A stretch of 64,000 nucleotides of DNA. Origin: Patescibacteria group bacterium (GTDB lineage: Bacteria; Patescibacteriota; Minisyncoccia; Phycocordibacterales; UBA9973). The stretch covers positions 85,070-149,069 of the forward strand of contig JAZJXT010000001.1 in the NCBI GenBank assembly GCA_040390725.1, in the 5' to 3' direction. Shown here in pieces: positions 379 through 2,409 of this stretch. Position numbers and translations under genes: made by a program. Under the pieces are notes generated by a model. The model was not told where the DNA came from, did no database searches, and saw nothing but the letters and a program-made list of their open reading frames with translations. Numbering within the stretch: the stretch's first letter is position 1; each line of letters starts with the position of its first letter.

Positions 379-2409
379 ATGGATAAGTTTGAATCTGAAA
401 AAAGAATAAAAAAATTGCGCGCAGAGATATCTCGTCTGCGGGAAGAATATCATGTTAAAAATGCTCCAAACGTGACGGACGATGTTTACGATTCTTTGAC
501 GCGCGAATTAAAATCTTTACTTAAAGAATATCCGGAATTTGAAAATATAAATGCATCAGAAAATAGGGTAGCAGGGAAGCCTCTTGATAAGTTTGAAAAA
601 GTAAAACACAAAACCAGAATGCTTTCTTTGAATGATGCTTTTAATGAAGAGGAACTTTATGATTGGGAAAAAAGAGTTAAGAAATTACTTGGGAGTTCAA
701 CTCCCAAGTCAAATTATTTTTGCGAAGTGAAATTTGATGGTCTCGCTGTGTCTTTAATTTATGAAAAAGGGAAATTTGTGCGCGGGGCAACCAGAGGGGA
801 TGGTTTTATCGGGGAAGATATTACGGAAAATTTGAAAATGATTGAATCTATACCCCTCTCCTTAACAAGGAGAGGGGCGGGGGGTGAGGTTGATTTTGAA
901 GTTCCCGAATATATAGAAGTTCGCGGTGAGGCATTGTTATCAAAAAAAACATTAATATCTTTAAACAAAAAAAATGAAAAAGAAGGCAAAACATTATTTG
1001 CCAATACTAGAAATGCAGCAGCAGGGTCATTGCGTCAGCTTGATCCAAAATTAACTGCCGAAAGAAAACTTGATTTTTATGCGTATGATATAGCAGAAAT
1101 TAATTCTGCCGAAGCCTTGCTTCGGCAGACGCATTCTGATAAACATAAATTACTAAAACAATTTGGTTTCAATGTTGATGAGCATGATGCAATTTGCAAG
1201 AATTTGGAAGAAGTTATAACTTTTATAAAAAAGTTTGAAAAAATAAGGCCCAATTTTCCTTATGGTACTGATGGCATAGTTATATGTGTTGATGATTTAA
1301 ATTTGCAAGAAGTTTTGGGTGTTGTCGGCAAAGCTCCGCGTCATAGTATTGCTTTTAAATATCCTGCTGAGCGAGCGACGACTGTTGTAAAAAATATTAA
1401 AGTAAATGTCGGTCGCACGGGTGTGCTGACTCCGCTTGCATTTTTTGAGCCGACGCTCGTCGCTGGTTCTATGGTATCAAAAGCCACTTTACATAATATG
1501 GATCAAATAGAAAGGCTTGATTTAAGAATAGGTGACACTGTGGTGATAGAAAAAGCCGGCGACGTTATTCCGAAAGTTGTGGAAGTCTTACCGAAAATGC
1601 GCACCGGCAAAGAAAAGAAATTTAAAATGCCGGAAGTTTGTCCTGCGTGTGGAAGCAAGATAGAAAAAAGGGGAGAACTGGTGGCTTCATTTTGTCCGAA
1701 TAAAAAATGCATTGCGAAAAATGAAAGATACATTGATCACTTTGTAGCCGTATTTGAAATCTATGAATTAGGTCCGAAAATCTTGCGCAGGTTTAAAGAT
1801 GAGGGTTTGATTACTGATGCGAGTGATATTTTTACTTTAAACAAAGAAGATATAGCACCCTTGGAACGATTTGGCGAGAAATCCGCGGAAAATATTATTA
1901 GAGAAATTGAAGAAAAAAAGAAAATTCCATTATCACGATTTCTTTGGGCATTGGGTATCTTGCATGTAGGCGAGGAGACAGCGCGTGATTTAGCGAATAA
2001 TTTTGGAACTTTGGAAAAGTTAGAGCAGGCGAGTTTGGAAAAAATAAATGAGATAGAAAATATCGGGCCGAAAGTCTCCGGTAGTGTGTATGAATTTTTT
2101 CGCGATAAAAACAATTTGAATTTTATAAAAAAATTGCAAGATAACGGCGTAAAAATAGAAAAATCTGAAAAGAAAAAAGCCGGAAAGTTTACCGGAATGA
2201 CTTTTGTTTTGACTGGCACACTCGGCACAATGTCGCGGGAAATTGCAAAAGAAAAAATAATAAACTTAGGCGGGAAAGTTTCCGGTTCAGTGTCAGCTAA
2301 AACTTCGTATGTAGTAGCAGGCGAGGAAGCCGGCTCAAAACTCAAAAATGCTGAGAAACTGGGTGTAAAAGTGTTAAATGAAAGTGACTTTTTGAGAATG
2401 CTCACCTAG
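379..2409 (+). CDS. ligA: NAD-dependent DNA ligase
   Basis: Adenylation KxDG motif ([11 protein letters not shown]), OB fold, Zn-finger Cys cluster (CPACGS..CPN..C), HhH and C-terminal BRCT-like region; 676 aa. Confidence 0.95.
853..891 (+). repeat. GC-rich palindromic mini-element (copy A) inside the ligA ORF, in frame
   Basis: cccctctccTTAACAaggagagggg + cggggggtgaggtt; perfect 10-bp stem; near-identical copies at 57849-57884 and 61962-62006. Confidence 0.7.

Follow-up and report, generated by a model that had tools for sequence, protein, structure and literature searches.

Rickettsia palindromic elements (RPEs), which are roughly 100-150 bp long, have a long imperfect palindrome, and are confined to Rickettsia, have been described as "selfish DNA in protein-coding genes." Organelle genes are also known to carry in-frame inserts that are GC-rich or palindromic, as in the yeast mitochondrial GC clusters in var1 and the "byp" elements of Magnusiomyces, the latter being skipped by the ribosome and not needing to be in frame. 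Among extragenic repeats, repetitive extragenic palindromic (REP) sequences are normally species-specific. Coding palindromes have been reported from Nematomorpha mitochondria (PMC6649704), and transposable elements of the miniature inverted-repeat type (MITEs) occur in genes of Coxiella (PMC5896051). Here, we describe a 39-nt GC-rich element within the NAD-dependent DNA ligase gene ligA, together with its copies in the peptide deformylase gene def and in intergenic DNA, in a 64,000-nt stretch of the genome of a Patescibacteria group bacterium (GenBank assembly GCA_040390725.1, contig JAZJXT010000001.1, positions 85,070 to 149,069 of the forward strand; hereafter the window). The source lineage is Paceibacteria/Nomurabacteria-like.

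Judged by its sequence, the element is a copy, 36-39 nt long in the window, of a pan-bacterial G/C-rich motif that has been named, in order, BoxC, PIT (potential intrastrand triplex), and TMECO (Holder et al. 2015, PMC4666352); for earlier studies, the same paper cites Bachellier et al. and Hoyne/Maher. The published pattern is 5'-CCCTCNCCC N3-6 GGGNGAGGG N3 GGGNGAGGG-3', with one mismatched pair tolerated, and is that of a class II intrastrand triplex of the purine-motif type; with the E. coli sequence, the triplex was shown in vitro by circular dichroism and nuclear magnetic resonance, with a melting temperature of 70-82 C (PMC4666352). E. coli MG1655 carries 23 copies, "always located intergenically," and the motif is associated with local genomic instability and not with transposons, phages, or plasmids (PMC4666352).

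Copies of the motif in ligA, def, and intergenic DNA

The product of the ORF at 379-2409 (676 aa) is 100% identical to a protein named by NCBI as NAD-dependent DNA ligase LigA of a Patescibacteria group bacterium, and the element lies in frame within this ORF as residues P159-V171. It consists of a perfect 11-bp hairpin stem with a 3-nt loop, followed by a second 3-nt loop and an 11-nt tail. As single-stranded DNA, it is predicted to fold at -12.3 kcal/mol (z = -4.7), and equal folding was reached in 0 of 200 shuffles; the folding computations cover Watson-Crick pairs only, and the value refers to the hairpin part. Its GC content is 64% (25/39), against 35-41% for the window. Four copies occur in the window, and their parts are as follows.

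853-891, + strand: ligA copy, whole element, CCCCTCTCCTT-AAC-AAGGAGAGGGG-CGG-GGGGTGAGGTT (the 39-mer is CCCCTCTCCTTAACAAGGAGAGGGGCGGGGGGTGAGGTT)
853-863, + strand: ligA copy, pyrimidine (Y) domain CCCCTCTCCTT, encoding P159-L162 and overlapping the native conserved IPLSL
864-866, + strand: ligA copy, loop 1, AAC (AAC, ATC, or GCC among orthologous copies)
867-877, + strand: ligA copy, purine (R) domain AAGGAGAGGGG, the Watson-Crick partner of Y
878-880, + strand: ligA copy, loop 2, CGG (CGG, CTA, TGA, TTG, TAA, or CTG among orthologs)
881-891, + strand: ligA copy, putative third-strand (reverse-Hoogsteen) domain GGGGTGAGGTT, by the triad rules of PMC4666352
27491-27526, + strand: subfamily B copy in the nrdA-nrdB spacer, Y CCTCCCCCTT, loop AATC, R AAGGGGGAGG, loop AAG, third strand GGTGGGGGT
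57849-57858, + strand: def copy, Y CCCTCTCCTT, followed by the loop ATT
57862-57871, + strand: def copy, R AAGGAGAGGG, followed by the loop TTG
57875-57884, + strand: def copy, third strand GGGTGAGGTT, with 10/10 triads
61935-62005, + strand: degenerate intergenic copy, all parts, with the inverted tail AACCTCA upstream at 61935-61941
61962-61968, + strand: degenerate intergenic copy, Y CCCCTCT, followed by an 18-nt AT-rich loop
61987-61993, + strand: degenerate intergenic copy, R AGAGGGG, completing a 7-bp stem
61996-62002, + strand: degenerate intergenic copy, third strand GGGGTGA

The def copy lies inside a minus-strand ORF (57562-58113) that encodes the peptide deformylase, where it reads PHPNPLLNKEREP on the minus strand and falls in a variable loop. 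The genes on either side of the copy at 27491-27526 were both confirmed by Pfam as nrdA and nrdB; this copy has a partial inverted third strand, ACCCCCTCC, upstream at 27472-27480, and its predicted DNA fold is -20.4 kcal/mol (z -4.5). The spacer that holds the degenerate copy is bounded by an S1-domain gene and a metallo-beta-lactamase-fold gene. When the window was searched with the pattern CCCCTCTCCTTNNNAAGGAGAGGGG, allowing up to three mismatches, two matches were found, with none in 100 shuffles, and GGGGTGAGGT had three exact matches (881, 57874, and 61996). An Rfam scan of the window at the gathering threshold returned RNase P and tRNAs only, with no family at the element sites.

The first-pass annotation of the window, made from the letters alone, had identified a dispersed palindromic mini-element read through in frame inside essential genes, and on this it was right: the ligA reading, the def copy at 57849-57884, and the variant between nrdA and nrdB are all as it described. 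Some of its particulars needed revision. The stem, given as a perfect 10 bp, is 11 bp long, and its GC content, put at about 70%, is 64%. The spacer copy at 61962-62006, thought to be near-identical, is a real copy but a degenerate one (61962-62002). The tail is not an appendage of the hairpin and is better described as a mirror-repeat third strand, as set out below.

The tail as third strand of a triplex motif

The tail of the ligA copy mirrors its purine arm: AAGGAGAGGGG reversed is GGGGAGAGGAA, and aligned with the tail GGGGTGAGGTT it places G opposite G and A opposite T or A. Allowed triads (G*G:C, T*A:T, and A*A:T) account for 11/11 positions in ligA, 10/10 in def, and 9/9 in the nrd spacer copy, in which a different arm, AAGGGGGAGG, is matched by a correspondingly different tail, GGTGGGGGT. 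The order of pyrimidine arm, purine arm, and third strand is thus, to the extent that sequence can define it, the layout of a class II purine-motif intrastrand triplex motif with an antiparallel third strand. A finder for this layout gave three perfect matches in the window and none in 20 shuffles.

We also counted third segments in a sample of related loci (83 sequences, 1.21 Mb, 93% in ORFs of at least 100 aa), considering perfect hairpins with a purine arm that is not mirror-symmetric and perfect third segments in all registers. Mirror copies of the arm outnumbered direct copies by 40 to 0 at 9 nt and by 50 to 3 at 8 nt, and from one subfamily to the next, third strand and purine arm co-vary. 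Neither a Watson-Crick alternative nor a G-quadruplex demands that this mirror symmetry be kept. By homology with the E. coli oligonucleotides, the G-rich strand, when single-stranded, could fold back twice, first as a hairpin and then with the third strand placed in the major groove.

Membership in the BoxC/PIT/TMECO family

The domains of the window copies follow the family order, with lengths of 11+3+11+3+11 nt in ligA, 10+3+10+3+10 nt in def, and 10+4+10+3+9 nt in the nrd spacer. The likeness to BoxC/PIT/TMECO includes arms of about 9-11 nt, loops of 3-6 and 3 nt, the core CCCTCTCC / GGAGAGGG / GGGTGAGG, the mirrored third strand, a multi-copy and dispersed distribution (76 copies in the 1.21 Mb of relatives in addition to the four in the 64-kb window), and the occurrence of inverted doublets. 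Set in the TMECO register, the def copy reads CCCTCTCCT-TATTA-AGGAGAGGG-TTG-GGGTGAGGT and matches at 8/9 positions per domain; the ninth triad differs, with T.A*T in place of C.G*G in each of the three domains at once. Using blastn, we aligned the def copy to E. coli genomes and obtained a 38-nt match with 84% identity in 500 genomes; in E. coli 042, the matching sequence, CCCCCTCGCCCTTTCAGGGAGAGGGTTGGGGTGAGGGTGA, is identical at 19/19 nt over the purine arm, loop 2, and third strand. This E. coli 042 copy (locus L204, 403-438; NC_017626.1, 1487019-1487054) overlaps the last codons and stop of ycjD (DUF559), so "always intergenic" does not hold strictly for the annotation of each E. coli strain.

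When one genome per bacterial species was scanned with the pattern CCTCTCC N5-9 GGAGAGG N2-8 GGGTGAGG, at least 120 loci with the motif were identified in diverse phyla. Among the matches listed are Pseudomonas, Xanthomonas, Enterobacter, Klebsiella, and Bifidobacterium, and the groups represented are Proteobacteria, Planctomycetes, Chloroflexi, Cyanobacteria, Bacteroidota, Acidobacteriota, Verrucomicrobia, and others; in these listed matches, conservation reaches past the bases specified in the pattern, as cCCCTCTCCC-loop-GGGAGAGGG-NN-GGGGTGAGGg.

Several features distinguish the Patescibacteria copies from the E. coli motif. Whereas the latter is reported as intergenic, two of the four window copies lie in frame in genes. 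At the terminal triad, T.A*T replaces C.G*G, and the loops consist largely of A and T (TTAACAA, TTATTAA), which fits a genome of ~37% GC. Finally, several sequence subfamilies occur side by side in the relatives.

Probable secondary insertion at a LigA loop

The nearest insert-free LigA, encoded at the syntenic locus L001, is 82% identical to that of the window and reads IPLSLHTPHPDYIEVRGE where the window protein has a 27-residue segment. The codons at the start of the site are CCT CTT TCT TTG in L001 and CCC CTC TCC TTA in the window; the left arm of the element corresponds to the native IPLSL codons, and the extra DNA comprises the loop, purine arm, second loop, and third strand only, for a net gain of 9 codons relative to L001. 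A short form of 18-19 aa, SIPLxLxxP[FY]PxY[IL]EVRGE, is present at this site in 36 of the 72 orthologous loci. The insertion at this site is not a clean one of 13 codons, as the left arm overlaps native codons, and about half of close LigA orthologs lack any insert here. The segment is not conserved in all related LigA sequences, its three domains are conserved at the nucleotide level, and the motif is not confined to its positions in the window, as the copies in relatives demonstrate.

A BoxC-type element occupies the IPLSL site in 24 of 178 LigA orthologs, always as IPLSL[TIL]RRG.GGEV. These 24 carriers are dispersed over the neighbor-joining tree among insert-free forms, and some orthologs hold other inserts; sister taxa can differ, as with P0033, which has the BoxC-type element, and P0064, which has GHPMSKWTSDVQ. 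Among orthologous ligA copies, the three domains are nucleotide-identical at 70-88% protein identity, and variation is found in the loops only. At the IPLSL site the BoxC-type subfamily keeps a single register throughout, whereas inserts of other subfamilies lie entirely past IPLxL. The overlap of the left arm with native codons could reflect capture guided by microhomology, a full insertion followed by collapse of a direct repeat, or selection for keeping IPL.

Based on alignment with E. coli LigA (2OWO/4GLX), which is gapped at the site, the E. coli protein is 8 residues shorter between IPL and EVRGE, in agreement with the figure of about 8 in the first-pass annotation. AlphaFold2 predicted coil for residues 161-177 of the window LigA, with pLDDT <50 at 167-170, just before the EVRGE strand. 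In this model, as the first reading of the site had supposed, the insert occupies a loop of the protein.

LigA lengths range from 662 to 784 aa among 120 orthologs (69-88% identity), and the differences are concentrated in about six short alignment blocks. In a second loop, KKLLP...NYFCE, at least 16 orthologs carry the BoxC-type element in another frame, where it is read as 27 residues. Tail-only relics occur at LigA hotspot 1, for example KKLLVGGEVN, and suggest that the element decays.

Other hairpin repeats occupy the same LigA loops. At hotspot 1 of the window ligA, an unrelated perfect 10-bp palindrome (687-709, ACTTGGGAGT-TCA-ACTCCCAAGT) is read as GSSTPKS and has a predicted DNA fold of -9.9 kcal/mol (z -6.5). 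Its family (CTTGGGAG...CTCCCAAG) is also present at hotspot 1 of two further loci, L126 and L162, and L148 carries it at another LigA hotspot, so that it too is a dispersed hairpin repeat read in frame. A perfect 11-bp palindrome, TCTGCCGAAGC-NNN-GCTTCGGCAGA, occurs twice in the window (1105-1129 and 13940-13964), with the loop inverted and 25/25 nt identical as reverse complement. The first of these copies is in frame at LigA hotspot 3 (SAEALLRQ), and the second is in frame in an ORF for a UvrD/PD-(D/E)XK helicase-nuclease (11594-14596, 1000 aa), where it reads SAEARLRQ; this palindrome was not found in 82 related loci.

At least six further insert families are found at the same LigA loops (orthologs P0001-P0120; loci L124-L203, e.g., hotspot 2 of L134, and aa 166 and aa 439 of L170), and together they stretch LigA from the shortest to the longest of the lengths given above. 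One, GHPMSKWTSDVQVP, is a nested double palindrome (z -9.4); another, KRSDLKNSKRSDL, is a hairpin (z -6 to -7.6) that occurs twice in one gene and also outside ligA; and the others are KNSSALLHPSGGTFRVQNSS, SSSSKGPRKGVSQTISNRTL, NSGAFALGDKGQGTHDALNS, and PAKFSRVLGLDPDQLENFL. At LigA hotspot 4 (L147, 1813-1888; L186, 6471-6546; L189, 8049-8124), the inserts are in-frame inverted doublets of the triplex motif, arranged tail-out over about 75 nt and read as ITTPSPLLNKEGVK...ASPPLEGGDGRGGL. They are similar to REPIN doublets and to the palindromic TMECO pairs found in E. coli, and they suggest that the doublet may be a unit of spread.

Residence in other genes and apparent translation

In Def, the loop between GVAIAAPQIG and EGCLS can be as short as about 9 residues or exceed 40, and PHP[DN]PLL.KER is present there in about 21 of 120 orthologs. 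Across the relatives, 52 of the 76 motifs, which represent several subfamilies, lie inside ORFs; ligA is over-represented among these coding copies because the loci were chosen for ligA, and outside ligA roughly a third of motifs still lie in ORFs. Based on Pfam, the coding hosts besides ligA encode Def, PheS, PheT, and TruB. Coding residence sets the Patescibacteria lineage apart from the other bacteria checked: in the low-GC (<50%) non-Patescibacteria loci of the species scan, 17 of 18 listed copies lie outside ORFs of at least 150 aa, and the remaining copy only clips the 3' end of an ORF. An assembly artefact was rejected, as the inserts are found again in assemblies made independently (NCBI, JGI, ENA, and Logan).

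Within the TruB gene of the window (ORF 9053-9820), there is also a perfect 9-bp GC-rich hairpin, ATCGCTAGG-CAAGA-CCTAGCGAT, at 9320-9342, which may be another in-frame element.

Despite up to about five inserts, 81 of 82 ligA orthologs maintain a single uninterrupted frame; the lone exception is a CAA-to-TAA-type stop in a conserved block, apart from the inserts. (This stop, in L158 at 6545, reads DDLKL*ETLG, with Q in relatives, and could reflect a pseudogene, a sequencing error, or recoding.) The inserts use all three sense frames as well as antisense frames, and loop lengths in coding copies differ such that the TGA within GGGGTGAGG never falls in frame. Open frames and TGA avoidance are as predicted by selection on translated inserts, and the copies in ligA and def are apparently translated. 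Ribosomal bypass and intron-like removal were considered and rejected, as every insert in the 81 genes is in frame and free of stops.

Spread and maintenance of the element

We think it probable that the element is a BoxC/PIT/TMECO copy, that is, a non-autonomous repeat with dispersed copies, whose entry into ligA and def was secondary and which is translated in tolerant loops and persists as a selfish or neutral passenger. In a nearly spacer-free genome, many new copies would land in genes, since about 93% of the DNA lies in ORFs. Survivors would be those that keep the frame, bring no stop codon, and fall in a tolerant surface loop, and such a filter would leave few insertion hotspots per protein. 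The element would then be translated into short loop peptides rich in Pro, Leu, Gly, Glu, and Arg, with gain and decay quick relative to protein divergence, and the copies would be passengers rather than functional parts of the enzymes. As for how copies spread, our favored guess is replication- or repair-linked copying or capture, triggered by the folded single strand rather than carried out by a dedicated transposase, with microhomology to pyrimidine-rich codons at the target, such as those of IPLSL, as a possible primer.

Several points weigh against this explanation. Insertion boundaries, target duplications, and the direction of gain versus loss are deduced from phylogenetic patchiness. 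An all-versus-all blastn of the 83 related loci yielded 12 close pairs and one unrelated 42-nt indel but no pair with filled and empty element sites, so that insertion junctions and target duplications cannot be defined. Translation, likewise, is deduced from conservation of frame. The invariant domains fit recent independent insertions or gene conversion and, equally, selection on DNA or RNA structure. The G-rich strand is on the leading (+) strand in 4/4 window copies and in 43/61 single copies in relatives, a count confounded by the strand of ligA; intergenic copies in relatives are divided 10:8 relative to GC skew, with no orientation bias and thus no support for a strand-specific single-stranded-DNA mechanism. 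In vivo, the triplex is unproven even for the E. coli motif (PMC4666352).

Mobilization in trans, in the manner of a REP/REPIN- or MITE-like element, by a transposase that acts on the folded single strand (e.g., RAYT or an IS200-IS605-type Y1 enzyme) is possible but unlikely. The triplex geometry would be the recognition structure, and in-frame copies would be insertions that survived selection. A size of 36-39 nt and a high copy number fit this account, and stems that are perfectly kept while loops vary are what a structure-recognizing enzyme would leave. Intergenic inverted doublets are found in relatives and in other phyla (L007, L029, L046, L059, L069, L119, L122, L148, L149, L156, L158, L171, and L189), and both intergenic window copies have a partial inverted third strand upstream. 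The coding copies, however, show no visible terminal inverted repeats or target duplications; in the comparison of the ligA copy with the empty site of L001, genes that are 18% diverged, no terminal inverted repeat beyond the internal hairpin and no duplication was seen. Near-identical sequence across many phyla would also be unusual for REPs, given their species specificity. The ends of the ligA and def copies lack a GTAG or CGTC tag of the kind given in PMC3733652, and the lack of association with transposons, phages, and plasmids reported by Holder et al. (PMC4666352) speaks against a transposase as well. A further proposal, which we regard as doubtful, is that cells do form the triplex fold in vivo and that this fold serves as the propagation intermediate, making these pan-bacterial selfish single-stranded-DNA elements that are enzyme-independent or depend on host machinery; it draws on the co-variation of the Y, R, and third-strand domains across subfamilies, kept even inside coding sequence. 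If it were true, repeated loop capture would be a major ongoing source of loop-length variation in the essential proteins of Patescibacteria.

It is very unlikely that the segment is instead a selected feature of the gene, maintained by purifying selection on a DNA or mRNA structure that promotes recombination or makes replication, transcription, or translation pause, or as a useful flexible loop peptide. The domains are indeed invariant in ligA copies with diverged flanks, where loops alone change; the third strand co-varies with the purine arm; and coding-copy loop lengths keep the tail out of the TGA frame. Yet about half of close orthologs lack the element, its distribution is patchy, the same loops hold unrelated hairpin families or copies in opposite orientation, and tail-only relics exist. 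Identical elements also reside in intergenic DNA and across phyla, and E. coli PIT elements had no promoter or terminator activity in earlier work cited in PMC4666352. An origin in place, by template-switching or fold-back replication errors on pyrimidine-rich codons (IPLSL = CCN CTN TCN TTN) with convergent similarity among copies, is strongly disfavored and in our judgment scarcely credible. It would explain why the left arm consists of native IPLSL codons, with only the loop, R, and third strand additional, and why the BoxC-type element at this site is always in the same register. A fold-back error, however, yields a hairpin and not a mirror-repeat tail, and identical stretches of 19-27 nt that include the non-palindromic third strand are present in def, in intergenic DNA, and in distant phyla, as well as in other frames at other LigA hotspots and in PheS, PheT, and TruB.

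Comparison with other systems

Like RPEs, the element is an in-frame palindromic repeat that is apparently translated, in loops, within conserved essential genes of a reduced genome, with no obvious transposase, although no search aimed at one was made. RPEs as generally described are nevertheless set apart by their length, their restriction to Rickettsia, their lack of a third-strand tail, and a probably unrelated sequence, against 36-39 nt, a third-strand tail, and a pan-bacterial family here. The RPE-like character noted in the first-pass annotation therefore stands as an analogy of behavior, and membership in the RPE family is excluded on size, architecture, and host. As in the organelle, Nematomorpha, and Coxiella cases, short structured GC-rich repeats have colonized the coding sequence of an AT-rich compact genome; the sequence families are different, and unlike byp elements, the inserts without exception keep the frame and contain no stop. 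REPs lie outside genes, are usually species-specific, and bear GTAG/CGTC tags, none of which holds for the ligA and def copies: no REP tag was found at either, and the GTAG inside copy 4 falls within the purine arm. Points of likeness to the RAYT-mobilized REP/REPIN system (PMC3116915, PMC3733652) are GC-rich palindromes of 20-40 nt, high copy number, and the presence of both single copies and inverted doublets; the ligA and def copies are not linked to any RAYT, for which no targeted search was made.

Other features of the window

The longest perfect hairpin in the window (51945-51977) has a 15-bp stem, GCTCCCGATTTTCAC-TAT-GTGAAAATCGGGAGC, and lies within or beside a weak ORF (51813-52310), downstream of the ORF at 50456-51868; it is possibly a terminator or belongs to a further family of repeats. 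A minus-strand ORF at 52369-55734 (1121 aa) contains about seven tandem units of 150 nt (50 aa) at 53446-54501, with 66-89% identity, and its product looks like a repeat-domain surface protein. At 40538-40763, direct repeats of tRNA-like sequence spaced 73-76 nt apart suggest a cluster of three minus-strand tRNA genes, of which Rfam at the gathering threshold gave one (40538-40610).

Significance

Our literature search found no report of in-frame repeats in Patescibacteria/candidate phyla radiation bacteria or of coding triplex motifs. The motif itself is already known; for its in-frame behavior, the first-pass view that this had not been described for such organisms is supported within the literature searched. 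What is new, as far as the literature can be searched, is that the motif routinely resides in frame, and is apparently translated, within essential genes in a lineage of Patescibacteria, that it recurs at loop hotspots common to this element and other hairpin repeats, and that there are AT-shifted subfamilies with three co-varying domains. BoxC/PIT/TMECO has been described since the 1990s, and its function and spread are still unexplained; the Patescibacteria copies supply natural co-variation data, in which the subfamilies and the C.G*G to T.A*T swap in all three domains argue that the three-stranded geometry, and not a mere hairpin, is preserved.

These copies also show the motif entering essential genes as a matter of routine and being tolerated there in the form of apparently translated loop peptides, with recurrent hotspots in LigA, Def, PheS, PheT, and TruB. 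Such inserts inflate and diversify Patescibacteria proteins, as in the case of LigA (662 to 784 aa), and they can confuse alignment and annotation; at the same time, they mark permissive loops for protein engineering. The finding thereby offers a parallel to the selfish coding DNA of Rickettsia, with a universal element, in the largest uncultured bacterial radiation.

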